Positions 2,397 to 16,302 of a stretch of 24,000 nucleotides of DNA are shown piece by piece (position 1 is the first letter of the stretch; the number at the start of each line of letters is the position of its first letter). The notes below the pieces were generated by a model. That model saw only the letters and a list, made by a program, of their open reading frames with translations. It was not told the DNA's origin and searched no databases. The DNA is taken from positions 137,469-161,468 of the forward strand of contig NZ_LLWQ01000215.1 of assembly GCF_001447385.1 (NCBI RefSeq), in the 5' to 3' direction. The DNA comes from Paracoccus sp. MKU1 (GTDB lineage: Bacteria > Pseudomonadota > Alphaproteobacteria > Rhodobacterales > Rhodobacteraceae). A program made the translations under genes and the position numbers.

Positions 2397-2457
2397 AGGC
2401 ATTCGCATTGGCCGGGGTCGGCATGGGACGGGCCAGCGGGCCGGCCGGTCCCGGCGG

Positions 2458-3156
2458 TCACAGATACATGTGCCGGATCGTGTCGTCCTGAAGCATCTCG
2501 GCGCGGGTGCCGCTGACCGCGATCTGGCCGCGCACCAGCAGATAGCCGCGGTCCGAGATCGACAGCGCGGTCTCGGCGTTCTGCTCGATCAGCAGCACGG
2601 TCTTGCCCTCGGCATGGATGCGGACCACGGTCTCGAAATATTCATCGATCAGCTTGGGCGACAGGCCCAGCGAGGGTTCGTCCATCACCAGCATCTCGGG
2701 ATCGCCGATCAGCGCCCGCGCCAGTGCCACCATGGCCTGCTCGCCCCCGGACATGGTGTTGGCCTGCTGGTTCATCCGCTCGCGGATGCGCGGGAACATG
2801 TCGTAGATCAGTTCCAGCCGGCTCTCGAAGGGGATGGTGCAGCCCGAGGCATCGTAGCCGAGCTTCAGGTTTTCGCGCACGGTCAGCGAGGGGAACAGCC
2901 GCCGCCCCTCGGGCACGAAGCCCACGCCGAGCGCGGCGAGCTTTTCCGTGCCCAGGCGCGAGATGTCGCGGCCCATCAGGCGCACCTCGCCGCCGTCCAG
3001 CGGCAAAAGCCCGGTCAGCGCCTTGAAGGTGGTGGACTTGCCGGCGCCGTTCGGACCCAGCAGGCAGACGAGTTCGCCCTTGCCGATGGTCATGCTGACC
3101 CCGCGCAGCATGGCGACGGGGCCATAGGAGGTGCTGACGTTGCTGAGTTCAAGCAT
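2458..3156 (-). CDS. ABC transporter ATP-binding protein, LivF-like (232 aa)
   Basis: Starts MLELSNVSTSYGPVAMLRGVS. Has Walker A GPNGAGKST, signature MSGGEQ and Walker B LVMDEPSLGL. The ATG at 3156-3154 overlaps the 3' end of the upstream LivG-like gene by 8 nt. Confidence 0.92.
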   Translation of the reverse strand: MLELSNVSTSYGPVAMLRGVSMTIGKGELVCLLGPNGAGKSTTFKALTGLLPLDGGEVRLMGRDISRLGTEKLAALGVGFVPEGRRLFPSLTVRENLKLGYDASGCTIPFESRLELIYDMFPRIRERMNQQANTMSGGEQAMVALARALIGDPEMLVMDEPSLGLSPKLIDEYFETVVRIHAEGKTVLLIEQNAETALSISDRGYLLVRGQIAVSGTRAEMLQDDTIRHMYL

Positions 3157-3940
3157 GTTCGACCGCCTTCTGTCCGAGATAGGCCTGCTGCACGCGGGGA
3201 AGCTGGCGCACGGTGGCGAAATCCCCCTCGGCGATCTTCTTGCCGTAGTCGATGACCACGACATTGTCGGGCAATTCGGCCACCAGCCGCATGTCATGCT
3301 CGATGATCAGGAAGGACAGGCCGGGATTGTCGGCCATGACGCGGCGGATATCGGCCATCAGCGCGGCCGTGTCGCGGTCGTCCATGCCCGAGGAGGGCTC
3401 GTCCAGCAGGATCAGCCGGGGATGCGAGGCCAGCGCCCGGGCGATCTCCAGCCGGCGCCGGTCGGCCTGCGGCAGGATGCCGGCGGGCTGGTAGCGGCGG
3501 GCGAAAAGCTCGTCCGAGATGCCGCGCAGGATCGTCTCGGCCTCGGCGGCGCAGGCCTCCAGCTCGCGCCGGGACTTCGCCGGGCGCAGCAGCGCGGTCA
3601 GCACGCCGGTGCGGGTGCGGCCATGCATGCCGATGATGACGTTGTCGAGGATCGACAGGTCCTCGAACAGCCGCGAGGACTGGAAGGTCCGGGCGATGCC
3701 GCGCATGGCGATCTTGTGCGCGGGCAGGCCGGTGATCTCGTCGCCCTGCAAGGCCACCGTGCCCGAGGTCGGCCGGTAGATGCCGGTGATCAGGTTGAAC
3801 AGCGTGGATTTCCCGGCCCCGTTCGGGCCGATGATGCAGGTGATGGTCGAGGGGGCGACGGTCAGGTCGACGGCATCGACGGCGACGAGGCCGCCGAAGC
3901 GGATGCCGAGCCCGCTCAGTTTCAGCAGCGGGGTGGTCAT
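3149..3940 (-). CDS. ABC transporter ATP-binding protein, LivG-like (263 aa)
   Basis: Starts MTTPLLKLSGLGIRFGGLVAV. Has Walker A GPNGAGKST, LFNLITG and Walker B LILLDEPSSGM. The ATG at 3940-3938 overlaps the TGA of the LivM-like gene (ATGA). Confidence 0.92.
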   Translation of the reverse strand: MTTPLLKLSGLGIRFGGLVAVDAVDLTVAPSTITCIIGPNGAGKSTLFNLITGIYRPTSGTVALQGDEITGLPAHKIAMRGIARTFQSSRLFEDLSILDNVIIGMHGRTRTGVLTALLRPAKSRRELEACAAEAETILRGISDELFARRYQPAGILPQADRRRLEIARALASHPRLILLDEPSSGMDDRDTAALMADIRRVMADNPGLSFLIIEHDMRLVAELPDNVVVIDYGKKIAEGDFATVRQLPRVQQAYLGQKAVEHA

Positions 3941-5115
3941 CAATGGCCTCCGTAATGGCGCTGGCGTTGCGGGAACAGCCCCTTGGGGCGCAGAATCAGG
4001 AACAGGATCACCACGACCGAGACGAAAAGCAGGCGGTAGTCGGAAAATACCCGCAGCTTTTCCGGCAGCATGGTCAGCAGGAAGGCGCCCAGGATCACGC
4101 CCAGCGTGTTGTCCATGCCGCCGACGATCACCATGGTCATGATCGTGACCGAGACCAGGAAGGTGAAGTTGTCGGGCGAGATATACGAGATGTAGAAGGC
4201 ATAGATCGTGCCGGCGAAGGCGGCCAGGAAGGCGTCCACGCCGAAGGCCAGGATCTTGTACCAGACCACGTTGATGCCCTGGCATTTCGCCGCCAGCTCG
4301 TCGGCGCGGATCGCGTTCCAGGCCAGGCCGACGCGGCTTTCGTGCAGCCGCTTGGCCGACAGGATCGCCAGCCCCAGCAGCGCCGCCGAGAGATAGTAGA
4401 AATTCGCCTGCGAGGGCAGCCGGAAGCCGAACAGCTCGATGGGCCGCATGAAGGAATGGCCCAGCAGGCTGGGCGCCGGGATGCCGACCAGGCCGTTCGG
4501 GCCGCCGGTCCAGCTGAGATTGTTCAGCATCTGGTGGATGACGATGCCGAAGGCGATGGTCACCAGCGCCAGGTAGCTGTCGCGCGTGCGCATCGACGGG
4601 ATGCCCAGCAGGAAGCCGAAGACCGTGGCGACGATGGCGGCGGCGGGCAGCGTCGCCCAGAAGGTCCAGCCGAAATGGATCGCCAGCAGCGCCGAGGTAT
4701 AGGCGCCGATGCCATAGGTCGCGCCGGTGGCGAAGTTCGGGATATTGGCCGAGCCGAGCTGGAAGTTCAGCGCCAGGGCCAGCACCGAATAAAGCAGCGA
4801 GACGATCAGCAGGTGCAGCGCATAGGTGTTGCCGCCCAGGAAGAACGGATAGATCAGCACGATGGCGACGGCCAGCACCGTGGCCAGCCCGCGCGCGTCG
4901 TGAAAGGCGGCGACGATCACCTCCTCGATCTGCGGGCGGAGTTGCAAGGCGGCGAACAGCGCGCCCATCACCGCCAGCAGCGCCACCACCAGCGGCGTCG
5001 ATTCGGCCAGCAGGAAGGCGCCGAGCAGGATCGCGCCGCCGATCTCGGTCGCGGCGACGATCAGGCTGGCGGGCAGGGCGGCGCGGCTCTGGATATTGGT
5101 CAGGGTCGTGGACAT
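3940..5115 (-). CDS. Branched-chain amino acid-type ABC permease, LivM-like (391 aa)
   Basis: Highly hydrophobic multi-TM protein sitting between LivH-like and LivG-like genes. ATG at 5115-5113, 4 nt after the LivH-like stop. Confidence 0.88.
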   Translation of the reverse strand: MSTTLTNIQSRAALPASLIVAATEIGGAILLGAFLLAESTPLVVALLAVMGALFAALQLRPQIEEVIVAAFHDARGLATVLAVAIVLIYPFFLGGNTYALHLLIVSLLYSVLALALNFQLGSANIPNFATGATYGIGAYTSALLAIHFGWTFWATLPAAAIVATVFGFLLGIPSMRTRDSYLALVTIAFGIVIHQMLNNLSWTGGPNGLVGIPAPSLLGHSFMRPIELFGFRLPSQANFYYLSAALLGLAILSAKRLHESRVGLAWNAIRADELAAKCQGINVVWYKILAFGVDAFLAAFAGTIYAFYISYISPDNFTFLVSVTIMTMVIVGGMDNTLGVILGAFLLTMLPEKLRVFSDYRLLFVSVVVILFLILRPKGLFPQRQRHYGGH

Positions 5116-5119
5116 CGGC

Positions 5120-6037
5120 TCAGACCTTTTCGAAGACGGGCTTGCCCAGCAGGCCCGAGGGGCGCAGGCACAGCATCAGGATGACGAGCAGGAAGGCGAA
5201 GACGAGGCGGTACGAGGCGCCGTCGGCGATGTTGGCCTGCACGATGCTTTCGATCCCGGCAATGGCGAGCGCGCCCAGGATCGCCCCGGTCATCGAGCCG
5301 AGGCCGCCGATCACCGCGGCGGAAAAGCCGATCAGGCCCAGCTGCACGCCGAAGTCGAATCGCACCACCCCGGCATGGCTGGCGAAGAACAGCGCCCCCA
5401 GCGCCCCCGCCGCCGAGGCGAGGAAGAAGGTGAAGGCGAAGATGCGCGAGGGGGTGATTCCCATCAGCCGCGCGGTCGCCGCATCCTCGGCCACGGCGCG
5501 GATGCGGGTGCCGATGGGCGTCTTCTGCATCAGCCCATACATCAGCGCCACGACCAGCGCGGTCGTGCCGACGATCAGCACCGGCTGGGCGGGCAGCCGC
5601 AGCGGGCCGAGCTCCAGGAAGCCCTGGGCGATGGCCGGGAACGCCTTGGGGTTCGAGCCCTGCGGATAAAAGCCCCGGATCAGCTCGCGGATCACCGTGC
5701 CCAGGGCCACGGTGGCCACCAGCGCCATCATCGCCGGCGAGCGGCGAAAGCGCGAGATCACCAGCTTGTCCGCGCCGATGCCGATCAGCCCCGTGACCAG
5801 GATCGCGATGGCCAGCACCGTCAGGATCGGCAGGATGCCCATGCTGCCGCCGGTGATGCCGAAGACCGCCTGAAGGCTGCCGAGCGCCACGAAAGGGGCG
5901 ATCATCGACACGTCGCCATGCGAGAAATGGATGACGTTGAGCAGCCCGAACAGCAGGCTGAACCCCAGCGCCACCAGCGCGTAAATACTTCCCAGAACCA
6001 GCCAGTTAAGCAGGTGCTGGAGGATCAGACTTTCCAT
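5120..6037 (-). CDS. Branched-chain amino acid-type ABC permease, LivH-like (305 aa)
   Basis: I chose the start MESLILQHLLNWLVLGSIYALVALGFSL (ATG 6037-6035) because a GGGAGGAC SD lies just upstream. The N-terminus is typical of LivH family permeases. The upstream 24 codons of the track ORF are rejected. Confidence 0.88.
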   Translation of the reverse strand: MESLILQHLLNWLVLGSIYALVALGFSLLFGLLNVIHFSHGDVSMIAPFVALGSLQAVFGITGGSMGILPILTVLAIAILVTGLIGIGADKLVISRFRRSPAMMALVATVALGTVIRELIRGFYPQGSNPKAFPAIAQGFLELGPLRLPAQPVLIVGTTALVVALMYGLMQKTPIGTRIRAVAEDAATARLMGITPSRIFAFTFFLASAAGALGALFFASHAGVVRFDFGVQLGLIGFSAAVIGGLGSMTGAILGALAIAGIESIVQANIADGASYRLVFAFLLVILMLCLRPSGLLGKPVFEKV

Positions 6038-6322
6038 GTCGTCCTCCCATGTTGATGCGTTGGATTGGTTTTTCCGACGAAGATGACGGCGGGAGCGCCC
6101 ATCAGGCAAATGAAATGCTTGGCCGGATGCTTCGTATTTTTTGAGGCACTGGTTCAGTTAATGCGACTTCTCAGCCGGGCGGAAATCGGTCGATGTTCGG
6201 GGTGCGACAACAAGCCGCGAGACCGGCGAGCCAGCATCCCCGAAAGGGTGCCCGGCCGGCCAACGCGGCAGATCCCAACCCAAACGCGACCGCGGAAACT
6301 TCCGCTTCGACAGGAGAGGTCC
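6038..6322. promoter_or_regulatory. Divergent intergenic control region between the livH-like operon (-) and the SBP/oxygenase cluster (+)
   Basis: 285-bp non-coding gap flanked by divergent starts, locally less GC-rich (about 6100-6170). Contains ATGCTT direct repeats at 6116 and 6128. I could not place -35/-10 elements confidently. Confidence 0.4.
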
Positions 6323-7459
6323 ATGGCTTTCATGCCCACCACCCGCCGCGCCGTTCTGGCCGGTCTCGTGCTTTCGACGGCGGTCTTTGCCGCCCCCGCA
6401 TTCGCCGAGAAGGCGAAGGTCAAGATCGGCTTCATGGGCCCGCTTTCGGGCGGCAACGCCCAGCAGGGTCTGGGCGCCCGGAACGGCTTCCTGCTGGCGA
6501 TCGAGCAGGCGAATGCCGATCCGGCCGGCCAGTATCAGATCGAGCCGGTGGTGCTGGACGACGCCTCGGACCCGCAGACCGGCGTCGGCGCGGCGATGAA
6601 GCTGGTGAACGACCCCGATGTGGTGGCCGCGACCGGGCACTGGAACTCGCCCGTGGCGCTGGCGACCATGCCGGTATTCTCGCGCTTCCAGACGCCGCTG
6701 GTGATCTGGGGCGCGATCTCTCCGGCGATCACCGAGCAGAACCTGCCCGAGGTGACGCGCGTCACCCCGACGCTTTTGACCGAGAACCAGCCGCTTTCGG
6801 AATGGATGGTCAAGGATCTGGGCGCCAAGCGCATCGCCGTCATCGCCGACACCTCGGATTACGGCAAGTCGAACGCCGAGGCGATTGCCGAATTCGTCCC
6901 GGCGGCGGGCGGCGAGGTGGTCTCGACCGACCTGCTGCCGGTGGGCTCGACCGATTTTCGCACCGTCCTGACCTCGCTGAAGGGCAAGCAGGTCGATGCG
7001 GTCTATTTCGGCGGCGTCATCACCGAGGCCGGCATCCTGGCCCGGCAGATGAAGGAAGTCGGGCTGGACAAGCCGATGCTGGGCATCTCGGGCTTCTACG
7101 ACCCGGAATTCATCGCGGTGGCGGGCGACGCGGCCTCGAACACCATCGTCTCCTATCCGGTGGCCTCGCAGACGCCGAAGCTGGCCAAGATGGAGGCCGA
7201 CTACCAGGCCAAGGGCTTCGCCGAACCGATGAGCCCCTATACGAAATACGCCTTCGATGCCGCGAACATCATCATCCAGGCGATCAACGAGGTCGGGGTC
7301 GAGAACAAGGCCAAGCTGGCCGAGACGATCCGCGCGATCCAGCATGACGGCGCCACCGGCCAGATCACCTTCGACGCGAACGGCCAGACCCAGACCCCCA
7401 TCGCCATCGAGCTGAAGACCGTCAAGGACGGCGCCTGGACCACCTATGCCAAGTCCTGA
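6323..7459 (+). CDS. Periplasmic substrate-binding protein, LivK/Leu-Ile-Val-binding family (378 aa)
   Basis: Starts MAFMPTTRRAVLAGLVLSTAVFAAPAFA (signal peptide with RR). The mature part begins EKAKVKIGFMGPLSGGNAQQG, typical of type-I amino-acid binding proteins. A GGAGAGG SD lies upstream of the ATG at 6323. Confidence 0.88.
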   Translation: MAFMPTTRRAVLAGLVLSTAVFAAPAFAEKAKVKIGFMGPLSGGNAQQGLGARNGFLLAIEQANADPAGQYQIEPVVLDDASDPQTGVGAAMKLVNDPDVVAATGHWNSPVALATMPVFSRFQTPLVIWGAISPAITEQNLPEVTRVTPTLLTENQPLSEWMVKDLGAKRIAVIADTSDYGKSNAEAIAEFVPAAGGEVVSTDLLPVGSTDFRTVLTSLKGKQVDAVYFGGVITEAGILARQMKEVGLDKPMLGISGFYDPEFIAVAGDAASNTIVSYPVASQTPKLAKMEADYQAKGFAEPMSPYTKYAFDAANIIIQAINEVGVENKAKLAETIRAIQHDGATGQITFDANGQTQTPIAIELKTVKDGAWTTYAKS

Positions 7460-7497
7460 CGCCCGCTGATCCGATCCATCCCCGCCGGCCGATCCCG

Positions 7498-7519
7498 CCC
7501 CTGCGAACGTTTGCAGGGG
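7498..7519 (+). terminator. Near-perfect palindrome/hairpin downstream of the SBP gene (terminator, attenuator or operator)
   Basis: CCCCTGCGAACGTTTGCAGGGG has a 7-bp GC-rich outer stem and is centred on AACGTT. It lies 39 nt after the stop at 7459 and 88 nt before the next ATG. No U-tract. Confidence 0.35.
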
Positions 7520-7606
7520 ACGGGAGAGGTCTGCCCGATCCCCCCCGCCGAGGGCCAGCGCGCCCGGGCCGAACCCATCCGCCGAAAGGCCAATCCCGAG
7601 GAAATC

Positions 7607-9061
7607 ATGTTAAGAACCGGAGAACAGTATCGCGACTCCATCCGCGACGGCCGCCGCGTCTGGATCAATGGCGAGCGCGTGCAGGACATCACCCGGCATC
7701 CGATGTTCAAGCCGCTGGTCGATATCCGCGCGCATATCTACGACATGGCCCATGCCGAGGCCACGCGCGACCTGATGAGCTACGAGGAGAACGGCGAGCG
7801 TTTCTCGGTCGGGCTCAAGCTGCCCTTCACCCGCGAGGACTGGCGCGCCAAGCGCGCCGCCACCAACGCGGTTCTGGAAGAGGTGGGCGGCATCGTCACC
7901 CGCGTCGGCGACGAGACGGCGGGCGAGATGTGGTCGCTGTTCGACGGCCAGGACATCCTGAACGAGGTGGATCCGCGCTTTTCGGAAAACATCCGCAACC
8001 ACATCCACCGCGTCATCATGACCGACCCCTTCCACGTCTCGGCCAATACCGATCCCAAGGGCGACCGCTCCAAGCGGCCGCAGGACCAGGACCCGGACAT
8101 GCTGCTGCACGTGGTCAAGGAAACCGACGCGGGCATCATCGTGCGCGGCGCGAAATACGAGACCGCCGCCGCCTATGCCAACCAGGCCTTCACCAAGCCG
8201 ACCATCGCCAACTGGGGCAACGAGGCCATGTCGGATTACGCGGTGGGCTTCGTGTGCGACTTTTCCTCGCCCAACCTGCGCTTCATCGCCCGCACCGGCT
8301 TTGCCGGCCGCGCGCCGGCCCGGGACTATCCGCTGTCGAACCGCTTCGACGAGGTCGAGACGCTGGTGATCTATGACGACGTGCTGATCCCGTGGGAAAA
8401 CGTGCTGTTCTACCAGCACACCAAGGCCGCGACCTTCATCCGCGCCACGCTGCACCGCTATTCCGCCTTTGCCTTCGTGCAGCGCAACCTCAAGCTTGCC
8501 GACCTCTTGATCGGCGCGGCGCTGTGGAACGTGCGCCAGACCGGGCTGGAGCATCAGCCGGCCGTGCAGGAAAAGCTGGCGACGCTGGCCTGCTACCGCG
8601 AGGGGATCAACGCCCACCTGACCGCGGCCATCGCCGAGGCCGAAGAAAGCCCCGGCGGGCTGATGATGCCGAACCAGTCGCTGCTGATGACCGGCCGGGT
8701 GCTGGCCTGTTCGCAGCTGCATCACATGATGCATCTGGCGCGCGAGCTTTGCGGCGGCCAGATCTGCATCACCCCCGATGCCGCCTGTTTCGAGGACCCC
8801 GAAACCGCGCCCTGGCTCGACAAGTTCTATACGCTGAACGAGAACTGGGGCAGCGAGGATCGCCGCAAGCTTCTGGCCTATGCGCGCGACCTGCTGAACT
8901 CGGACTATGCCGGCCACCGGCTGACCTTCCAGCTTTTCGCGCAATCCCCGCCCTTCGCCCATCTGGCTGCCGTCTATCGCAACTTCGACTGGAACGAGGC
9001 GCTGCGCTTCACCCACAAATCCGCGGGCCTGTCCGATCAGGTCTGGGGCACGAAACACTGA
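7607..9061 (+). CDS. 4-hydroxyphenylacetate 3-hydroxylase (HpaB) family protein, oxygenase component of a two-component flavin monooxygenase (484 aa); substrate unknown
   Basis: Alignable by eye to E. coli HpaB. Matching blocks include GEQYRDSIRDGRRVWINGERVQDITRHP, VKETDAGIIVRGAK and DYPLSNRFDEVETLVIYDDVLIPWENVL. The ATG at 7607 fits where homology begins. The upstream 32 codons of the track ORF are rejected. Confidence 0.88.
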   Translation: MLRTGEQYRDSIRDGRRVWINGERVQDITRHPMFKPLVDIRAHIYDMAHAEATRDLMSYEENGERFSVGLKLPFTREDWRAKRAATNAVLEEVGGIVTRVGDETAGEMWSLFDGQDILNEVDPRFSENIRNHIHRVIMTDPFHVSANTDPKGDRSKRPQDQDPDMLLHVVKETDAGIIVRGAKYETAAAYANQAFTKPTIANWGNEAMSDYAVGFVCDFSSPNLRFIARTGFAGRAPARDYPLSNRFDEVETLVIYDDVLIPWENVLFYQHTKAATFIRATLHRYSAFAFVQRNLKLADLLIGAALWNVRQTGLEHQPAVQEKLATLACYREGINAHLTAAIAEAEESPGGLMMPNQSLLMTGRVLACSQLHHMMHLARELCGGQICITPDAACFEDPETAPWLDKFYTLNENWGSEDRRKLLAYARDLLNSDYAGHRLTFQLFAQSPPFAHLAAVYRNFDWNEALRFTHKSAGLSDQVWGTKH

Positions 9062-9079
9062 ATGACCGGAGCAGACACC

Positions 9080-9499
9080 ATGACCATCCATCACCGCATC
9101 CGCCCCTTCAACACCAAGGAAACCTATCCCGAGCAGAAGCTGAACAACGACCTGAGCCAGGGCGTCGTCGCCCGCGGCACCATGGTCTTCCTGCGCGGCC
9201 AGGTCTCGCAGGACCTCGAGACCCGCGAATGCCTGCATGTCGGCGACCCGGCGGCGCAGACCCGCAAGACCATGGAAAACATCCGGATGCTGCTGGAAGA
9301 GGCGGGCTCGCGGATGGAGCATATCTGCCGCATCGTCGTCTATGTGACCGACATCCGCTATCGCGAGGCGGTCTATCAGGAGATGGGCAAGCATCTGCAA
9401 GGCGTGCATCCCTGCTCGACCGGCATCGTGGTCCCGGCGCTGGCCCGGCCCGAATGGGTGGTCGAGATCGAGGCCACCGCCGTCATCCCGGACGCATGA
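9080..9499 (+). CDS. RidA/YjgF/endoribonuclease L-PSP family protein (about 139 aa; alternative start at 9062 gives 145 aa)
   Basis: Size and sequence are typical of RidA-family proteins (GQVSQDLE.., AQTRKTMENIRMLLEEAG, IVVYVTDI, VEIEATAV). GGAG at 9068-9071 is well spaced for the ATG at 9080. The ATG at 9062 directly abuts the TGA of the upstream gene, so either start is possible. Confidence 0.85.
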   Translation: MTIHHRIRPFNTKETYPEQKLNNDLSQGVVARGTMVFLRGQVSQDLETRECLHVGDPAAQTRKTMENIRMLLEEAGSRMEHICRIVVYVTDIRYREAVYQEMGKHLQGVHPCSTGIVVPALARPEWVVEIEATAVIPDA

Positions 9500-9506
9500 G
9501 GCGGGC

Positions 9507-10184
9507 ATGACCTTCTCGATCTCCGCCCGCTGCCCCGAGACCGGCATGTTCGGCATCGCGGTCTCCTCCTCCTCGCCCTGCGTGGCGGCGCGTTGCGCCC
9601 ATGCGCGGGCGGGCGTGGGGGTGGTCGCGACCCAGAACGTCACCGATCCGAGCCTGGGGCCGAAGGGGCTGGACCTGATGGCGCAGGGGCTTTCCGCGGC
9701 GCAGGCGCTGGAGCGGCTGGTGGCCGAGGCGCCGCATGTCGAATACCGCCAGCTGGCGCTGGTCGATGCGGCGGGCGGCACCGCCGGGCGTTCCGGCGCC
9801 CGGACGCTGGGCACGCATGGCATCGCCTATGGCGAGGGCGTGGCGGCGGCGGGCAACCTGCTTCGCTCGGACGAGATCCCGCGGAAGATGGTCGATGCCT
9901 TCATGGCGGCCAGCGGCCGGCATCTGGGCGACCGGCTGTTGGCGGGCATGCGCGCCTCGGTCGCCGCCGGCGGCGAGGAGGGGCCGGTGCATTCCATGGG
10001 CATGCTGATCGTGGACAGGGTGAGCTGGCCCATAGCCGACCTGCGCATCGACTGGAGCGAGGGCGATCCCATCGAGGATTGCGCCGCCCTGTGGGAACGC
10101 TGGCGGCTCGAGATGGACGCCTATGTGACCCGCGCGCTGAACCCCGACGCCGCGCCCAGCTATGGCGTGCCCGGCGACGAATGA
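9507..10184 (+). CDS. DUF1028 family protein (Ntn-hydrolase-like fold), 225 aa
   Basis: The N-terminus MTFSISARCPETGMFGIAVSSSSPCVAARC matches the characteristic MTFSI..D/CPETG..GVAV start of DUF1028 proteins as I remember them. Starts 7 nt after the RidA stop. Confidence 0.8.
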   Translation: MTFSISARCPETGMFGIAVSSSSPCVAARCAHARAGVGVVATQNVTDPSLGPKGLDLMAQGLSAAQALERLVAEAPHVEYRQLALVDAAGGTAGRSGARTLGTHGIAYGEGVAAAGNLLRSDEIPRKMVDAFMAASGRHLGDRLLAGMRASVAAGGEEGPVHSMGMLIVDRVSWPIADLRIDWSEGDPIEDCAALWERWRLEMDAYVTRALNPDAAPSYGVPGDE

Positions 10185-10239
10185 TCCCCCCAACTCGGGG
10201 GCGGCCCGTGCCGCCCCCGGTCTTTGCGACGAGATTTCC

Positions 10240-11409
10240 ATGACCGCGATCCCCTCGACCGTCGATATCCTGCGCCGGCTGGTCGCCTATCAGACGGTGT
10301 CCCGCCGCCCGAACCTCGACCTGCTGGACTATGTCGAGGGGCTGCTGCGTCCCGCTGGGGCGCGCGTCGAACGCTTCGCGCATGCCGATGGCAGCCGCGC
10401 CAATCTGTGGGCGACCATCGGTCCCGAGGGGCCGGGCGGCGTGGTGCTGTCGGGCCATACCGACGTGGTGCCGGTGACCGGCCAGGACTGGAGCCTGGAC
10501 CCCTTTGCCCTGACCGAGCGCGACGGGCTCTATTACGGGCGCGGCACGGCGGACATGAAGGGCTTCGTCGCCGCCGCCATCCATGCCGCCCTGCATGCCG
10601 CCCGGCGCGATTTGCGGATGCCGCTGCATCTGGCGCTGTCCTATGACGAGGAAATCGGCTGCATGGGCGTGCGTGGCATGATCGAGGCGCTGGCCGCGCG
10701 TCCCGACCGTCCGGCGCTGTGCATCGTGGGCGAGCCGACCGGCATGCGCATCGCCGCCGGCCACAAGGGCAAGGCGGCCTATCGCGCCTGCTGCCATGGC
10801 CGCGAGGGCCATTCGGCGCTGGCTCCGAACGCGCTGAACGCCTTGCATCTGGGCGCGGCCTTCGTCGCCGGGCTTCAGGTCCGGCAGCAGGAACTGGCCA
10901 GCAGCGGTGCCCGCGACCCTGCCTATGACATTCCCTATTCCACCATCCATGCCGGCATCATGCAGGGCGGCACGGCGCTGAACATCGTGCCGAACCGCTG
11001 CGAGATCGATTTCGAGATCCGCAACATCGTCGCCGACGACCCTGCCGCGATCCTGGCTGCCATCGCCGGCGATGCCGAGGCCATCGCCGCCGCCCATCGC
11101 GCCCGTTTTCCCGAGGCGCGGATCGAGATCGAGACGGTCTCGGCCTATCCCGGCCTCGACACCCCCGAGGACGCGCCCGCGATCCGGCTGCTGCGCCGCA
11201 TCACCGGGGCGGACGGGCCGGCGATCAAGGTGGCCTTCGGGACCGAGGGCGGGCTGTTCCATCAGGGCCTTGGCATGTCCACGGCGATCTGCGGGCCGGG
11301 CTTCATGGAGCAGGGCCACAAGCCCGACGAATTCGTTGCCGCCGAACAGCTGGCGGCCTGCGACCGGATGCTGTCGCGCCTGCTCGATGCGCTGGAGGCG
11401 GCGGCCTGA
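10240..11409 (+). CDS. M20 family metallopeptidase, acetylornithine deacetylase (ArgE)-like deacylase (389 aa)
   Basis: Starts MTAIPSTVDILRRLVAYQTVS. Has the metal-binding and catalytic motifs SGHTDVVP, GRGTADMKG and SYDEEIGC typical of ArgE/DapE-type M20 enzymes. The upstream 26 codons of the track ORF are rejected. Confidence 0.88.
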   Translation: MTAIPSTVDILRRLVAYQTVSRRPNLDLLDYVEGLLRPAGARVERFAHADGSRANLWATIGPEGPGGVVLSGHTDVVPVTGQDWSLDPFALTERDGLYYGRGTADMKGFVAAAIHAALHAARRDLRMPLHLALSYDEEIGCMGVRGMIEALAARPDRPALCIVGEPTGMRIAAGHKGKAAYRACCHGREGHSALAPNALNALHLGAAFVAGLQVRQQELASSGARDPAYDIPYSTIHAGIMQGGTALNIVPNRCEIDFEIRNIVADDPAAILAAIAGDAEAIAAAHRARFPEARIEIETVSAYPGLDTPEDAPAIRLLRRITGADGPAIKVAFGTEGGLFHQGLGMSTAICGPGFMEQGHKPDEFVAAEQLAACDRMLSRLLDALEAAA

Positions 11410-11489
11410 CCCAAGAACCAGCTTCCAATTCGGCGGGTGAGCGCGGAAAGAATGTTGCCACTTTGCGCGCATGACAGGGGACCAGGACG

Positions 11490-12458
11490 ATGCGATTCAC
11501 GCTCAGGCAACTCAGCTATTTCATCGCGGCCGGCGAGACGCTGTCGGTCACCAAGGCGGCCGAGCAGGTCAATATCTCGCAGCCCTCGATCTCGGCGGCC
11601 ATCGCGCATCTGGAGACCGAGCTGAACGTGCAGCTTTTCGTGCGCCATCACGCGCAGGGCCTGTCGCTGACGCCCGCCGGCACCCGGCTGCTGCGCGCGG
11701 CCAAGGAATCGCTGCGCGCCGCCTCCGAGCTTTACGACGTGGCCAGCGACGTGAACGACCATGTCGCGGGCACGCTGAATGTCGGCACCTTCTTCACCTT
11801 CGCGCCGCTGATCGCCCCGGAGCTCTGGACCGGTTTCTCGGGCCGCTACGAGGCGGTGCAGATGACCATGGCCGAGGGCAGCGAGGTCGATCTGTTGGAA
11901 AAGCTGCGGCTGGCGCGGATCGACCTGGCGCTGACCTATGACCTGAACCTGCCGCCGGATGTCTCGTTCATCGAACTGGCGCGGCTCAGGACCTATGTCA
12001 TCGTCGGGGCCGGGCATCGCATGGCGGATCGCAAGTCCGTCCGGCTGGCCGAGCTGATCGACGACCCCTTCGTCCTGCTGGACCCGCCGCTGACGCGCGA
12101 CTACTTCCTGGGCATGTTCCGCAAGATCGGCGGCACCCCCCGCATCGTGATGGAAACCTCGTCCACCGCCTCGCTGCGCTCCTATGTCGCGGCGGGCATC
12201 GGCTACAGCATGATGACCGTCCGGCCTGCCAACCGCCATGCCGAGAATGGGCTGCCGCTGGTCTATCTTCCGATCGAGGACGTCTCGCAATCCATCGCCT
12301 TCGGCATCGCCTATCTGACCGAGCTGCGCCGGTCGCGCGCGGCCGAGGCCTTCATCGACTATTGCCGCGAGGTGATCCGCGACGGCGCCCTGCCGGGCAT
12401 GCTGCCGGCCGAGCAGACCGAATGCGGGCCCGAGGATCCGGCCCATCAATCTTCCTGA
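11490..12458 (+). CDS. LysR-family transcriptional regulator (322 aa, HTH plus effector domain)
   Basis: N-terminal wHTH MRFTLRQLSYFIAAGETLSVTKAAEQVNISQPSISAAIAHLETELNVQLFVR, followed by a LysR substrate-binding domain. An AGGA SD lies upstream of the ATG. Confidence 0.93.
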   Translation: MRFTLRQLSYFIAAGETLSVTKAAEQVNISQPSISAAIAHLETELNVQLFVRHHAQGLSLTPAGTRLLRAAKESLRAASELYDVASDVNDHVAGTLNVGTFFTFAPLIAPELWTGFSGRYEAVQMTMAEGSEVDLLEKLRLARIDLALTYDLNLPPDVSFIELARLRTYVIVGAGHRMADRKSVRLAELIDDPFVLLDPPLTRDYFLGMFRKIGGTPRIVMETSSTASLRSYVAAGIGYSMMTVRPANRHAENGLPLVYLPIEDVSQSIAFGIAYLTELRRSRAAEAFIDYCREVIRDGALPGMLPAEQTECGPEDPAHQSS

Positions 12459-12553
12459 GGCAGAGCTGCGGAAAACACGATTTTGGCCCGAGGGCAAAAG
12501 CCGGCAATCTGCATGCAGGACAATCGGAACGAACCCACGCAAGGACAGCAGCC

Positions 12554-13723
12554 ATGAACGCCGACCCGCAGATGCCCCAGATCCCGCTTCGCGACCGCTT
12601 CGTCGCGGGGATGAGCCATGCCGCCTGCACGGTGAATGTCGTCACCACCGACGGCCCGGCTGGCAAGGCGGGGGTCACGGTTTCGGCCATGGCCTCGGTC
12701 TCGGCCGATGGCGAGGCGCCGACGCTGCTGATCTGCGTCCATCACCTCAGCCCGGCGGCGCCCAGGATCATCGAGAACGGCGTGCTGTGCGTGAACGTGC
12801 TGCGCGAGGACCAGTCCTATATCTCCGAAGCCTTCGCCGGGCGTTTCAAGGACGAGCTGGGCGACAAGTTCGAATGCACGGACTGGGTGGTGCTGGCCAA
12901 TGGCACGCCGCGCGTCGCCGACCCGCTGGTGGCATTCGAGTGCCATGTGCTTTCGGCCGAGCGGGTCGGCACGCATCACGTCCTGCTGTGCGCCGTCGAT
13001 GACACGCATAGCGCTCGGCTCGGCTCGCCGCTGATCTATGCCAACCGCTCCTATGGCTCGTCGCGCCGGATCGATGCGCCGCGCAGCATGCGGGGCGTGC
13101 TGAACGGCGAGGGGATCAAGCTGAAGGTCGGCTGCTTCCACACCTTCGGGCCGTTCCTGATGCCCTCGCTGATCCGGCAACTGGGCGGGCTCGATATCGA
13201 GCTGCTGGAAGGCGACCAGCGCCGGCTGACCGAAAGCCTGGTCTCGGGCGAGTCCGAAATCGCGGTGCTCTATGACAACGACCTGGACGAACGTTTCGAA
13301 TGGCAGGCGCTGAGCGTGCTGAAGCCCTATGTGCTGATGGCCGAGGATCATCCGATGGCGCGTCAGGCCGAGATCCTGCCGACCGACCTGGCGGCCGAGC
13401 CGATGGTGCTGTTGGATGCGCCGCCCTCCAGCGCCTATTTCACCGGCATCCTCGAGGCGCAGGGGGTCGAGCCGCTGATCGCGCATCGCTCGGCCTCGTT
13501 CGAGATGGTGCGGGGCATGGTCGCGCATGGGCTGGGCTATACGCTGCTGTGCACGAAGCCCGCGTCGAGCATGAGCTATGACGGGTTGCCGCTGGTGGCG
13601 CTGCCGCTGGCGGGCGATCATGCGCTGTCGCAGATCGTGCTGGCCTGGCGCAAGGGGCATGCGCTGTCCAGCGCCGCCCAGCGTTTCGCCCAGAAATGCC
13701 GCGAGAAATTCGCGCGGGCCTAG
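12554..13723 (+). CDS. Fusion protein: N-terminal HpaC-like NAD(P)H:flavin reductase domain (aa ~12-168) plus C-terminal LysR-type effector-binding domain (aa ~187-385); no HTH domain (389 aa)
   Basis: The N-terminal part aligns by eye with E. coli HpaC (FVAGMSHAACTVNVVTTDG.AG..GVTVSA..SVS...PTLLICV....., NGVLCVNVL.EDQ....AFAG). The C-terminal part aligns with the effector domain of the adjacent LysR (LKVGCFHTFGPFL, PMVLLDAPP, GLGYTLL, GLPLVALPL). Only about 20 aa link the two, and only 95 nt separate this gene from the upstream stop, so there is no room for an HTH. An AAGGA SD lies 8 nt before the ATG at 12554. Confidence 0.85.
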   Translation: MNADPQMPQIPLRDRFVAGMSHAACTVNVVTTDGPAGKAGVTVSAMASVSADGEAPTLLICVHHLSPAAPRIIENGVLCVNVLREDQSYISEAFAGRFKDELGDKFECTDWVVLANGTPRVADPLVAFECHVLSAERVGTHHVLLCAVDDTHSARLGSPLIYANRSYGSSRRIDAPRSMRGVLNGEGIKLKVGCFHTFGPFLMPSLIRQLGGLDIELLEGDQRRLTESLVSGESEIAVLYDNDLDERFEWQALSVLKPYVLMAEDHPMARQAEILPTDLAAEPMVLLDAPPSSAYFTGILEAQGVEPLIAHRSASFEMVRGMVAHGLGYTLLCTKPASSMSYDGLPLVALPLAGDHALSQIVLAWRKGHALSSAAQRFAQKCREKFARA

Positions 13724-13726
13724 TTC

Positions 13727-13747
13727 GGCGGGGCCTGACGGCCCGCC
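13727..13747. terminator. Bidirectional hairpin between convergent genes
   Basis: GGCGGGGCC-TGAC-GGCCCGCC lies between the TAG at 13721-13723 (plus gene) and the stop at 13753-13755 (minus gene). Confidence 0.5.
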
Positions 13748-13752
13748 ACGCG

Positions 13753-14307
13753 TCAGCCAGCGGGCGCCAGGGCGACGACCAGCGCCCGCCCGCCGCGCCG
13801 CAGCGGTCCCGGCCCGCAGATCAGCGTATCCTGCCGGGCAAGGTAATGCAGGCGGCCGCCGGTCTCGGCCTGCTGGGGCTCCAGCGCGAACAGGACGGTC
13901 AGGCCGGCCGCCTCGTCCATCCCCTTTTCCAGCACCGCCGCCCGCGCGATGGTCCAGGCGTCGCGATCGGCCATGACGTTGAACACCCGCACCGGCCCGC
14001 CGACGGGCCGCCCCACCGGCGCCAGGCCGGTGTCGAAGCGGAAGGGCGCCAGCGGGGCCAGATGCTCGCTGCGGCTGCCGAAATCCAGCACCAGCCCCGC
14101 GCCCTCGATCAGCGTGATGACCCGGTCGGCGCCGGCAAAGGCGGAAAAGCCGCCATCCGTCAGGATCGGCGCGCGCGAGATGCGGATCGAAAAGGCGTCG
14201 CGGTCGCCGCGGGGCGGCCAGAGCCAGACCTCGTCCGTGGCGCCGGTGCCGTTCTTCCACGGCATGGTGCGATAGGCGCTGGCCGGCAGGTGCAGGGGCA
14301 GTTCCAT
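13753..14307 (-). CDS. HutD/Ves family protein (184 aa)
   Basis: Has the motifs YRTMPWKNGTGATDEV, GGFSAFAGADRVITLIEGAG and PFRFDTG, as in HutD-family proteins. I chose the ATG at 14307 (MELPLHL) because AAAGGAA lies 5 nt upstream. The track start at 14325 is a TTG. Confidence 0.8.
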   Translation of the reverse strand: MELPLHLPASAYRTMPWKNGTGATDEVWLWPPRGDRDAFSIRISRAPILTDGGFSAFAGADRVITLIEGAGLVLDFGSRSEHLAPLAPFRFDTGLAPVGRPVGGPVRVFNVMADRDAWTIARAAVLEKGMDEAAGLTVLFALEPQQAETGGRLHYLARQDTLICGPGPLRRGGRALVVALAPAG

Positions 14308-14331
14308 GGGGTTCCTTTCGGGCAAGGCGGA

Positions 14332-15099
14332 TCAGTCGCGCCGATCCAGGAATTCGATCCGTCGCGGCAGGCTCTCGGGGGACAGGATACGGCCGTCCGC
14401 GTCCAGCCGGACCAGTTCGGGCCCGGCGCCGCGCTGCGCACGGACCAGATACCGGCCCGCCGGCGGGCGGATCTGCGCGGGGGCAAGCCACCCGGCATCC
14501 AGCACGCCCTCCCATGGACGGCCGAGGCAGCGCCGTGCCTGCCGCATGTCGCCGGCCAGGATCGCCTCGCGCGCCGCGGTCGAGGAAAAGCCGCCCTGCA
14601 ACGGCAGGACCGTGACACCGATGCCGCGCGCCGTGCATTCCTGCGTCAGGGTCCGGGTCGTGCCCGCGCGTTTCGCGCCGAAATGGAAATCCGCGCCGAC
14701 CACCACATGCGAGACCCCCAGCCGCCGGCACAGCACCTCGTCGATGAAGTCGCAGGGCGTCATGCCGGCGAAGGCGCGGTCGAAGACGGGCTCGAACAGG
14801 TAATCCAGCCCGATCCGCCGCGCCGTCCCGTGCTTCTGTTCGGGCAGGGCCAGGCGGAAGGGCGCGGCCTCGGGGGCAAACACCTGGCGCGGATGGGGCT
14901 CCACCGACATGACGCCGACCGCCCGCCCGTCCGCCGCAATCCGACGCGCCGAGCGGATCAGGAACTGGTGGCCGCGATGAAAGCCGTCGAAATTCCCCAG
15001 CACGATGACGCCTTGGCGCAGCGCCGACCCTGCCGCGATGCCGCTGCGCAGGATCGCCAATTCCGGGCGGAACGGATGGGGAGAGGGGATCTGGGTCAT
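14332..15099 (-). CDS. RibF-like FMN adenylyltransferase (FAD synthetase) domain protein with a shortened, degenerate riboflavin-kinase region (255 aa)
   Basis: The N-terminal module has the FAD-synthetase motifs VLGNFDGFHRGHQ, VGADFHFG and SSTAAREAI. After the LGRPW junction only 59 residues remain, and I see no GFPTAN-like or G.RPT kinase motifs. Confidence 0.8.
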   Translation of the reverse strand: MTQIPSPHPFRPELAILRSGIAAGSALRQGVIVLGNFDGFHRGHQFLIRSARRIAADGRAVGVMSVEPHPRQVFAPEAAPFRLALPEQKHGTARRIGLDYLFEPVFDRAFAGMTPCDFIDEVLCRRLGVSHVVVGADFHFGAKRAGTTRTLTQECTARGIGVTVLPLQGGFSSTAAREAILAGDMRQARRCLGRPWEGVLDAGWLAPAQIRPPAGRYLVRAQRGAGPELVRLDADGRILSPESLPRRIEFLDRRD

Positions 15100-15213: not shown

Positions 15214-15687
15214 TCACAGAAAGCCGATCCAGCGCCCCGCCAGCAGCACCGACAGCCAGATCGCCACCGAAAGCGCCGCCAGAATGCGCGCATCCGGGCC
15301 GGGCGCTCCGGTCTCGACTGCCTGTCGCCAACCCTTGCCGATATGTTGCAGGGCGACGACCACAAGGCCAAGTGCGATCAGCGCCATTTTCCAGCGGAAG
15401 GCGGCATTGGCCAGATAGTCGCGGCCCGCGACCGACCACAGGACGGGGCCGGTCGCAAGGGCGATGGCAAGCCCGACCCCCGCTGCACGCGACAGGAAGG
15501 GCGCCAGGACGCGCAGCGCCCCGCCGCGGATGATCCCGACAAGGCGAAGGTCCAGCGGAACGATCGCCCCCAGCAGCAGCGCGATTCCCAGGATATGCGT
15601 GGCATTCACCACCATGTAGAGATGGCCCGAACGGCGCAGCGCCGCCGCCAGGGCGGTGCTCTCGGCCCAGGCCGCGAAGTCCTGCAC
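15214..15687 (-). CDS. Hypothetical integral membrane protein, about 4 TM helices (157 aa)
   Basis: GTG start at 15687-15685, 3 nt after the upstream stop, with AGGA 7 nt upstream. Four hydrophobic segments (ILGIALLLGAIV, GVGLAIALATGPVLW, MALIALGLVVVAL, LAALSVAIWLSVLLA). Confidence 0.7.
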   Translation of the reverse strand: MQDFAAWAESTALAAALRRSGHLYMVVNATHILGIALLLGAIVPLDLRLVGIIRGGALRVLAPFLSRAAGVGLAIALATGPVLWSVAGRDYLANAAFRWKMALIALGLVVVALQHIGKGWRQAVETGAPGPDARILAALSVAIWLSVLLAGRWIGFL

Positions 15688-15690
15688 GGC

Positions 15691-16074
15691 TCAGTCCTGG
15701 ATGCGATCAGGATACATGTCGTAGTTCTGCCCGTCGATCACGATGCGGACGGCCTTCATATGCGCGCTTTGGTCCTGGTTGCGATTGCCGATCACCGTGA
15801 TCGCATCGCCCGGCTCTGCCGTGTCGGCGGTAAAGCCCGAGCGGGCGGTCTGGTTGGGATTGCCCAGATCGACCTGCCAGACGGTGCCCTGGGCATCGCG
15901 GACCTGAATGGTGGGATGGGGCGGGTTCATCGAGACGCTTTCGATGGTTCCCTCCAGCGTCGACTGCTCGCCTTCGGCCCATGACCAGCCGTGATGCGCA
16001 AGCGCGGGCACAGCGCCGAGCGTCAGGGCAGCGGCGAGCATGATGGAGGGAAGGATGCGGGCTTGGATATGCAT
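15691..16074 (-). CDS. Secreted small protein, DUF6152-like (127 aa); mature N-terminus predicted HHGWSW
   Basis: Signal peptide MHIQARILPSIMLAAALTLGAVPALA, then HHGWSWAEGEQSTLEGTIESVSMNPPHPTI. This matches the AHH...TL.GT......NPH pattern I recall for DUF6152 proteins. An AAGAGG SD lies 6 nt upstream of the ATG at 16074. Confidence 0.7.
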   Translation of the reverse strand: MHIQARILPSIMLAAALTLGAVPALAHHGWSWAEGEQSTLEGTIESVSMNPPHPTIQVRDAQGTVWQVDLGNPNQTARSGFTADTAEPGDAITVIGNRNQDQSAHMKAVRIVIDGQNYDMYPDRIQD

Positions 16075-16229: not shown

Positions 16230-16258
16230 TTGACCGACCGAACGGTTAACGATAACCA
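16230..16258 (+). promoter_or_regulatory. Candidate promoter/operator of the acylase gene (TTGACC -35-like, weak -10)
   Basis: TTGACC at 16230-16235 is followed by the palindromic ACCG-AA-CGGT (16237-16246). TAACCA sits 17 nt downstream as a poor -10. The block is shared with the paaJ upstream region. Confidence 0.3.
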
Positions 16259-16302
16259 TGGCGAGGCGCCGGAGGAGGCGCCTACACCCGGAGGAGAATC
16301 AC

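Follow-up and report, generated by a model that had tools for sequence, protein, structure and literature searches.

A probable imidazole-4-acetate module in Paracoccus sp. MKU1, with an HpaB-family oxygenase and a flavin reductase fused to a HinK-like effector domain

The gene cluster discussed here lies in a stretch of 24,000 nucleotides from Paracoccus sp. MKU1 (contig NZ_LLWQ01000215.1, positions 137,469 to 161,468, forward strand; the window, to which all coordinates below refer). It is likely to serve the uptake and breakdown of imidazole-4-acetate (ImAA), to which histamine is oxidized, and to be equivalent to the lower part of the histamine (Hin) pathway. Judged by sequence, the module appears largely orthologous to that lower pathway but fails one of its defining features, as it has no HinF monooxygenase. 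What would be new here is the two-component oxygenase that replaces HinF, together with a conserved flavin reductase fused to an effector domain that resembles that of the regulator HinK and is devoid of a helix-turn-helix (HTH). Domain content, orthology-level similarity, synteny and co-occurrence were computed, and the substrate, the reaction assignments and the allostery of the fused domain are inferred from them.

All seven co-directional genes that an initial annotation had described in the window are present and carry the domains then named (Pfam). The reductase fusion among them is likewise real, and its partner can now be specified as a LysR effector-binding domain without HTH. From ribosome-binding site (RBS) context and the PGAP calls in a near-identical syntenic Paracoccus plasmid (L001), the likely true starts, all ATG, were placed at 7607 (HpaB), 9080 (RidA-like), 10240 (M20) and 12554 (fusion). 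These choices refine four plus-strand open reading frames: HpaB_N and HpaB from 7511-9061 to 7607..9061, Ribonuc_L-PSP from 9062-9499 to 9080..9499, Peptidase_M20 and M20_dimer from 10162-11409 to 10240..11409, and Flavin_Reduct and LysR_substrate from 12362-13723 to 12554..13723 (Pfam). The intergenic gaps, first given as 0-95 nt, thereby become 7-147 nt. The conserved unit is a single block, 2452-15033, which is 87.7% nucleotide-identical in three other Paracoccus genomes (blastn) and adds an ABC importer, a HutD gene and a FAD_syn-like gene to the unit originally recognized. The window is ~88% nucleotide-identical to a plasmid of Paracoccus sp. TOH, to P. binzhouensis and to P. simplex, and the fusion protein is 100% identical to its counterpart in Paracoccus sp. 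PXZ. The arrangement is far from chance, and the same gene set is also present in Roseovarius, Hwanghaeella, Labrys, Aminobacter, Mesorhizobium and Ancylobacter and on many metagenome contigs. The G+C content of the window is 64-72%, and a scan for sigma-70 promoters and terminators found none above shuffled expectation.

In histidine metabolism (KEGG), the reaction of EC 1.14.13.5 yields 5-hydroxyimidazole-4-acetate, which opens to N-formimino-L-aspartate; ammonia is then removed to give N-formyl-L-aspartate (EC 3.5.3.5), and EC 3.5.1.8 releases formate and L-aspartate. The corresponding proteins of Pseudomonas putida U have been described as an FAD monooxygenase of EC 1.14.13.5 (HinF), an enamine deaminase (HinL), an amidase (HinH), an amidase of EC 3.5.1.8 (HinG) and an aspartate ammonia-lyase (HinI) (PMC6467879). 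HinK is an ImAA-responsive LysR regulator that activates hinDAC and hinFLHG of the histamine pathway (PMC8231116).

A search with the DUF1028 protein of the window identified comparable operons in other genera. In Burkholderia, genes for an NAD(P)/FAD oxidoreductase, RidA, DUF1028 and 'argE' stand in a row beside a divergent LysR gene, and in P. taiwanensis and Metapseudomonas furukawaii a stand-alone operon encodes a flavin monooxygenase (FMO)-like protein (438 aa), a Ribonuc_L-PSP protein (143 aa), a DUF1028 protein (225 aa) and an M20 protein (390 aa). It can be strongly inferred that this Pseudomonas operon is hinFLHG. The Rid, DUF1028 and M20 proteins of the window are 55-56%, 55% and 48-49% identical, respectively, to the counterparts in the Burkholderia and Pseudomonas operons, the M20 figure being over full length. 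Thus, the combination that could not initially be matched to any characterized pathway does match one, in that RidA–DUF1028–M20 and LysR correspond to hinL–hinH–hinG and hinK in order and family. Conversely, tblastn with Pseudomonas and Leisingera FMO-type proteins found no HinF-type FMO in the window, and an HpaB-family gene occupies that position.

The likeness to the Hin lower pathway (hinFLHG and HinK; P. putida U, and PA5393-PA5390 and PA0218 of P. aeruginosa) therefore comprises the order and families of HinL–HinH–HinG, a HinK-like LysR, an oxygenase gene that immediately precedes the Rid gene and, in relatives of the module, linkage to histamine dehydrogenase, aldehyde dehydrogenase and aspartate ammonia-lyase. 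There are also differences. Where Hin has the single-component FMO-like HinF, an APC permease and a stand-alone regulator gene, the window has an HpaB-family two-component oxygenase with its flavin reductase, a dedicated Liv-type ABC importer and a regulator gene within the operon. It further possesses a second HinK-like effector domain, fused to the reductase, and the HutD and FAD_syn-like accessory genes.

The product of 7607..9061 has the HpaB_N and HpaB fold (Pfam E 3e-82 and 6e-57), and its closest solved relative is the HpaB of T. thermophilus (TtHpaB; E 2e-52). With the HpaB/HpaC 4-hydroxyphenylacetate (4-HPA) 3-monooxygenases (T. thermophilus, 2YYG; E. coli) it shares this fold, a separate HpaC/RutF-type reductase and, presumably, the same C4a-hydroperoxyflavin hydroxylation chemistry. 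However, it falls far short of the HpaB equivalog cut-offs (TIGR02309, 222.9 versus 480.2 bits; TIGR02310, 157.1 versus 885.2 bits), and its context would be imidazole rather than homoprotocatechuate catabolism. TtHpaB binds phenol through R100-Y104-H142 (PMC10816480), and the R-Y-H triad is replaced in the alignment by R-E-S in the window oxygenase; R-E-S is invariant in all 23 of 23 clade members from hin-like loci, which are 61-98% identical. Because the Tyr/His pair has been lost, a phenolic substrate is disfavored, and a carboxylate at the phenol-site position would suit the N-H of an imidazole. A 4-HPA hydroxylase system was ruled out by the low scores and the loss of the phenol site. 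It is proposed that 7607..9061 encodes a two-component imidazole-4-acetate monooxygenase that replaces HinF.

How often the two oxygenase types accompany the downstream genes was assessed by a genome scan with a DUF1028 alignment, limited to one genome per species, from which the best 80 loci (57-98% identical) were scored by tblastn with reference proteins. RidA was present in 77 of these 80 loci and M20 in 57. An FMO (HinF)-type oxygenase alone was found in 45 loci, an HpaB-type alone in 15, both in 2, and neither in 18, ten of which have truncated flanks. A flavin reductase domain occurred in 11/17 HpaB-containing loci versus 0/47 FMO-containing ones. The FMO gene lies directly upstream of RidA in 37/47 loci, and HpaB does so in 7/16, with the remainder within ~2.2 kb on the same strand, usually separated from RidA by the reductase or M20 gene. 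Homologues of histamine dehydrogenase, whose reference protein matches PDB 6DE6 (E 0), accompany half of the loci (40/80), in a distribution of 32/47 FMO-containing versus 4/17 HpaB-containing loci, and aldehyde dehydrogenase accompanies 29/47 FMO-containing loci. Aspartate ammonia-lyase, the HinI function, adjoins the HpaB-type modules of Aminobacter and Mesorhizobium as well as the FMO-type modules of Leisingera.

The reverse test started from the oxygenase, with a metagenome scan using an alignment of the HpaB clade, which yielded 80 contigs (76-99% identical). Among the contigs with at least 2.5 kb downstream, RidA was present in 38/44 and DUF1028 in 35/44. Where 5 kb or more was available on each side (21 contigs), 19 carried both. 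No FMO-type gene was found in any of the 80 contigs. From the genome census and this reverse test it therefore follows that the HpaB–RidA–DUF1028–M20 quartet, whose conservation the initial annotation had proposed to check, is co-conserved in both genomes and metagenomes, and that the HpaB-type oxygenase acts like a non-orthologous substitute for HinF.

Several loci depart from the two common arrangements. A Klebsiella plasmid (L003), four Shinella loci (L007, L016, L019 and L020) and an Ensifer locus (L017) have RidA–DUF1028–M20 with neither oxygenase type within ~10 kb, and a third way of performing the oxygenation step may exist. In the Shinella trio loci, histamine dehydrogenase, aldehyde dehydrogenase and an ABC importer stand alongside. 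The trio is carried by ~105 Klebsiella plasmids, and the Klebsiella plasmid shares with Aminobacter a set of neighbors comprising glutathione S-transferase, a type II dehydroquinase-like protein and an NAD(P)H-quinone oxidoreductase. In Roseovarius litorisediminis (L011), a Rieske/Ring_hydroxyl_A oxygenase gene (5397-6530 of that locus) is inserted between HpaB and RidA of an otherwise identical module. In Methylobacterium dankookense (L089), the reductase–LysR fusion gene lies beside RidA–DUF1028 and no HpaB-clade gene was found at 40% identity or above; the oxygenase is either more divergent or encoded elsewhere.

Taken together, these comparisons suggest the following course for the pathway. 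The Liv-type ABC system would import the substrate, likely ImAA, because the conserved block contains no histamine dehydrogenase, aminotransferase or aldehyde dehydrogenase; ImAA is probably either taken up as such or formed by histamine-oxidizing genes elsewhere. The HpaB-family oxygenase, supplied with reduced flavin by the reductase, would hydroxylate the imidazole ring in the imidazoleacetate 4-monooxygenase reaction, which is the step of HinF. The ring-opened N-formimino-L-aspartate would be converted to N-formyl-L-aspartate and ammonia by the HinL-like Rid and HinH-like DUF1028 proteins, and the HinG-like M20 enzyme would strip the formyl group to leave L-aspartate. The full-length LysR protein may serve as a HinK-like ImAA-responsive activator at the divergent promoter, and the second, non-DNA-binding HinK-like domain may sense ImAA and gate NADH:flavin reduction, so that free reduced flavin would be made only when the substrate is present, analogously to the 4-HPA-activated reductase C1 discussed below.

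In outline, this scheme bears out the earlier view that the genes serve catabolism and combine a dedicated importer with a two-component flavin oxygenase and its reductase, two hydrolases and a Rid-family protein. The predicted N-acylated, amino-acid-like compound would find its equivalent in the intermediates N-formimino- and N-formyl-aspartate, and the possibly aromatic substrate in a (hetero)aromatic one. The resemblance then drawn to the Rut pathway (RutA-F) holds in general terms only: there, too, ring opening of an N-heterocycle falls to a flavin monooxygenase and a separate RutF-type reductase, and hydrolases and a Rid-family protein follow. However, RutA (luciferase-like), RutB and RutD are absent here, and the end product and the regulator differ. 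Neither a luciferase-like nor an isochorismatase gene was found in the module by Pfam or NCBIfam, and the matches to the RutC and RutF models lie far below the cut-offs (44.6 versus 169.1 bits and 129.3 versus 254.75 bits, respectively). The Rut system was rejected on these grounds.

The three downstream enzymes occupy consecutive positions on the plus strand. The gene for the HinL-like Rid-family protein (Ribonuc_L-PSP) lies at 9080..9499. It is followed at 9507..10184 by that of the HinH-like ('amidase') DUF1028 protein (E 4e-65), which has an N-terminal nucleophile (Ntn)-hydrolase fold, 2IMH as a solved relative, and an N-terminal M-T-x-S motif in which Thr2, directly after the initiator Met, is invariant; this is an Ntn-hydrolase signature. 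HinL and HinH probably cover ring opening and deimination together. HinH is equated with the DUF1028 gene on the strength of the F-L-H-G order within the operon and of the product names, rather than of a deposited HinH sequence. HinH was reportedly required for histamine catabolism in a genetic study of 2018, and the family would thus not gain its first functional context here, as had been anticipated. A search of the open literature found no paper that links HinH to DUF1028, and searches on DUF1028, PA5390-93 and formimino- or formyl-aspartate enzymes returned nothing useful. Databases still name the HinH-type protein DUF1028 or 'FimA', and the names of cluster members carry no 'Hin' labels. 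The HinG-like M20 protein, encoded at 10240..11409 (Peptidase_M20 and M20_dimer), is proposed to be the N-formyl-L-aspartate deformylase, and an ArgE-type deacylase fits this last step (EC 3.5.1.8).

The LysR-type regulator (11490..12458, plus strand; HTH_1 and LysR_substrate) has as its closest solved relative P. aeruginosa HinK (6M5F/3FZV, E 4e-59, of which 6M5F was identified as HinK), followed by 2ql3 (3e-28) and CysB (2e-24). Immediately downstream, the gene at 12554..13723 (plus strand; Flavin_Reduct and LysR_substrate) encodes the fusion, in which a RutF/HpaC-type flavin reductase (residues ~8-156) is joined by a linker of ~30 residues (157-186) to a complete LysR effector domain (~187-389). 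The Flavin_Reduct and LysR_substrate matches were placed at residues ~20-170 and ~189-387, respectively. No HTH_1 match was found in this protein by Pfam, its N-terminus being Flavin_Reduct, and the same applies to all 120 of its 120 best homologues. The fused domain also matches HinK best: a search of solved structures returned 3FZV/6M5F (E 3e-42), and Foldseek placed HinK first (E ~1e-23, 37-39% identity), the C-terminal domain of a Rhodococcus LysR protein next (2QL3, E 1.6e-22, 35%), and differently named LysR-type transcriptional regulators (LTTRs) further down (E ~1e-15, 17-28%). Both Pfam domains are present in 120/120 of the best database homologues, down to 56% identity, and AlphaFold2 (35-sequence alignment) predicts two confident domains with a low-confidence linker (mean pLDDT 80); an origin by frameshift or assembly artifact was rejected, as all 120 homologues are fused and both domains fold confidently. 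The homologues span several alphaproteobacterial orders, in Paracoccus, Labrys, Ensifer, Pseudogemmobacter, Leisingera, Ruegeria, Sulfitobacter, Roseovarius and Hwanghaeella, and in Roseovarius, Hwanghaeella and Labrys the fusion was accompanied by HpaB, RidA, DUF1028, M20 and a full LysR protein in every locus checked. The fusion is thus a real, selected but derived architecture.

To our knowledge, the only precedent for such an arrangement is the C1 reductase of Acinetobacter baumannii (AbHpaC; PDB 5ZC2). Like the fusion, C1 has a short-chain flavin reductase domain at its N-terminus and, at its C-terminus, a domain derived from a transcription factor family. In C1, however, the sensor is a MarR (winged-helix) domain, unlike the periplasmic-binding-protein-like LysR effector domain found here; sequence similarity to 5ZC2 is confined to the reductase domain (E 3e-4), and its partner oxygenase C2 and HpaB fall into different groups. 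Binding of 4-HPA to the MarR domain relieves autoinhibition and raises flavin reduction at least 30-fold, in an arrangement that a review calls uncommon (PMC10816480). By analogy, the fused protein of the window is probably a substrate-gated reductase, although gating by 4-HPA is established for C1 and ligand gating is only predicted here. Tentatively, it may be ImAA itself that binds the HinK-like domain and switches on NADH:flavin reduction. A literature search turned up no description of a fusion between a flavin reductase and a LysR ligand-binding domain (LBD). The fuller combination, namely a ligand-gated reductase whose ImAA sensor is an LTTR domain detached from its DNA-binding domain, with a previously unrecognized, imidazole-hydroxylating HpaB-family clade as its partner, is offered with similar reserve.

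A number of observations weigh against these readings and have to be set beside the alternatives. With regard to the fusion, the AlphaFold2 model has a pTM of 0.53, which leaves the relative orientation of the two domains undefined, and most HpaB-type loci, such as those of Aminobacter and Ancylobacter, have a plain unfused reductase, so that the pathway does not depend on the sensor domain. The fused domain might therefore not be allosteric at all, and instead serve as a hetero-oligomer partner of the HinK-like LysR (an anti-activator or co-sensor) or as an oligomerization or docking scaffold. LTTR effector domains are generally known to mediate dimer and tetramer contacts, a full-length HinK-like LysR accompanies the fusion in all loci examined, and the sufficiency of the plain reductase in many HpaB-type loci and the lack of a confident predicted interdomain interface would be readily understood on this basis. 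Yet the fused domain is 32% identical to the LBD of the neighboring LysR versus 37-40% to the HinK proteins of Pseudomonas and Burkholderia (40% for the Burkholderia HinK-like LysR), and is thus unlike a recent copy recruited for heterodimerization; moreover, substrate-gated reduction has a precedent in this class of enzyme. A purely non-allosteric role is on balance rather unlikely.

With regard to the substrate, tblastn with the reference proteins found no histamine dehydrogenase, aldehyde dehydrogenase or aspartase in the window, and a literature search returned no paper on a two-component ImAA monooxygenase. The equation of the Pseudomonas operon with hinFLHG was derived from gene order and published product descriptions, not from deposited Hin sequences. 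Six of the 44 HpaB-clade contigs lack RidA and DUF1028, and the neighbors of one contig without the RidA–DUF1028–M20 trio (L132) are uninformative. In Rhizobium sp. Q54 (L037) and a Rhodobacteraceae metagenome-assembled genome (L077), both oxygenase types lie beside the same RidA–DUF1028 pair; because these two loci carry both, the two types may not be strictly equivalent or fully redundant. The Rid protein, moreover, lacks the canonical RidA Arg, having Ser in 'HPCSTG' where 2B33 has 'PAR', and it also falls below the TIGR00004 cut-off. Because Ser replaces the substrate-binding Arg, the label 'RidA / enamine deaminase' probably holds at the superfamily level only, and the disposal of a reactive enamine or imine ascribed to this protein in the initial annotation is putative. 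The Rid copy of the Burkholderia hin-type operon has the same Ser-containing motif ('YPISTG'). The M20 protein, finally, exceeds the TIGR01892 cut-off for acetylornithine deacetylase (369.9 versus 297.7 bits) and passes NF005710 too.

Several of these points would suit a module that degrades a different N-heterocyclic or amino-acid-like compound, such as imidazole-lactate, imidazole-propionate, or a pyrrole or hydroxy-heteroaromatic acid, ImAA not being the natural substrate; the HpaB-type product would then be a ring-opened N-formimino or N-acyl amino acid that the HinL/H/G-like enzymes happen to process. An oxygenase that is non-orthologous to HinF need not share its substrate, and the missing dehydrogenases of the window, the scarcity of histamine dehydrogenase in HpaB-containing loci (4/17 versus 32/47), the two loci with both oxygenases, the Rieske oxygenase gene after HpaB in Roseovarius and the HpaB-clade contigs without the trio all fit this explanation. 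Conversely, it is the ImAA sensor HinK that both sensor domains resemble most, the trio is 48-56% identical to that of the hin operons, with its DUF1028 protein 57-98% identical to those of histamine-dehydrogenase-linked loci, and the recurrent neighbor is aspartase rather than a glutamate-related enzyme. The mutual exclusion of FMO and flavin reductase (0/47) also fits the replacement of one enzyme by another at the same step. A different substrate is thus improbable. Far less credible is the literal reading of the database names, by which the cluster would combine a 4-HPA 3-hydroxylase linked to the pac/paa genes, an argE acetylornithine deacetylase and a generic RidA. These are the PGAP names in the near-identical plasmid, the M20 protein passes both cut-offs just mentioned, and pac and paa genes lie within 3-10 kb. 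However, the HpaB equivalog scores (223 and 157 bits) are remote from the required 480 and 885, the phenol-binding Tyr and His are replaced, and hpa genes for ring cleavage are absent; the conserved block does not include the paa genes, and pac is at the opposite end in other Paracoccus. The 'argE' model, furthermore, also captures the M20 protein of the Pseudomonas hin-type operon (L004, 8671-9843), which passes TIGR01892 at 407.5 bits as well as NF005710. TIGR01892 therefore does not separate HinG-type enzymes, which suggests that the model is over-inclusive, and since PGAP names these M20 genes argE because both models pass, the name is probably a systematic misnaming of orthologues of the formylaspartate deformylase HinG. 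An arginine-biosynthesis locus was rejected, the M20 gene being syntenic with RidA–DUF1028 (57/80 loci).

An assignment of the cluster to ImAA catabolism would provide thousands of proteobacterial genes now labeled DUF1028, 'argE' or 'RidA' with a pathway context that current annotation misses. If true, a non-orthologous two-component imidazole-acetate monooxygenase would widen the chemistry of the HpaB family from phenols to imidazoles, and a gated fusion would be a second, independently evolved solution beside A. baumannii C1 with its MarR sensor. The enzyme–sensor fusion is found in more than 120 sequence clusters, may be a new case of substrate-controlled supply of reduced flavin, and is relevant to flavoenzymologists and biosensor designers. 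The turnover of histamine and ImAA by environmental and host-associated bacteria, moreover, bears on food spoilage and host signaling.

The divergent Liv-type ABC importer noted at the outset was confirmed on the minus strand at 2458-6037, with two BPD_transp_2 permeases and two ABC_tran ATPases. The LivF-like ATPase (2458..3156; ABC_tran; ATG at 3156) matches an 'ABC transporter ATP-binding protein' of the syntenic Paracoccus plasmid L001, and is followed by the LivG-like ATPase (3149..3940; ABC_tran and BCA_ABC_TP_C; ATG at 3940 with a GGAGG RBS), the LivM-like permease (3940..5115; BPD_transp_2, E 2.9e-44) and the LivH-like permease (5120..6037; BPD_transp_2, E 7e-32; ATG at 6037 with a GGGAGGA RBS). 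The periplasmic solute-binding protein, of the LivK fold, is encoded on the plus strand at 6323..7459 (Peripla_BP_6, E 5e-54), and its homologues, at 53-96% identity, adjoin RidA–DUF1028 modules in Labrys, Ensifer, Mesorhizobium and metagenome loci. Its proposed ligand is imidazole-4-acetate or histamine; histamine is considered because binding proteins of 53-55% identity also flank FMO-type loci with histamine dehydrogenase. A second Liv-type binding protein (849-2114, minus strand; Peripla_BP_6) just outside the conserved block, and an ABC ATPase ending at 130 (minus strand), also outside it, appear to be components of another transporter.

In the divergent promoter region, a dyad (TGAGGCACTGGTTCA ... 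GCGACTTCTC) at 6140..6172 is a candidate operator of the HinK-like LysR regulator. It is conserved in position in Paracoccus spp. (L001, L014, L015, L094 and L095) and in Labrys (L013), with diverged flanking intergenic sequence. A comparison of the window with the upstream regions of Pseudomonas hinF showed loose resemblance only, and a shared operator is not claimed.

At the other end of the block, two accessory genes lie on the minus strand. HutD proteins are otherwise known from histidine-utilization operons, and the HutD-family gene of the window (13753..14325; E 1.9e-36), which lies inside the 87.7%-identical block, belongs to those that recur near HpaB-type modules, in Aminobacter and metagenome loci. 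The FAD_syn-like protein (14332..15099; FAD_syn, E 5e-39) matches the RibF models over their N-terminal half alone, so that it has the FMN-adenylyltransferase half of RibF and lacks the riboflavin-kinase half; it may supply FAD to the oxygenase. The pair of HutD and FAD_syn-like genes recurs close to HpaB-type modules in Aminobacter (L008, L025) and in metagenome contigs (L094, L113, L114).

The link to the nearby pac/paa genes that had been suggested earlier is unsupported. The paa genes (PaaX, thiolase, PaaA/C and PaaD) lie beyond the conserved block (blastn); a functional linkage to them was rejected on this ground, and they are regarded as bystanders. Unlike the paa genes, the penicillin-acylase-family gene (16258-18675) stays near the module: it is 77% nucleotide-identical to a gene in three other Paracoccus genomes (L001, 2494-4860; L014; L015), where it is found at the other end of the module and points the other way, which amounts to a local rearrangement. 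Between the module and this gene, at 15214-16074 on the minus strand, are two small genes that encode a DUF6644 membrane protein and a DUF6152 protein.

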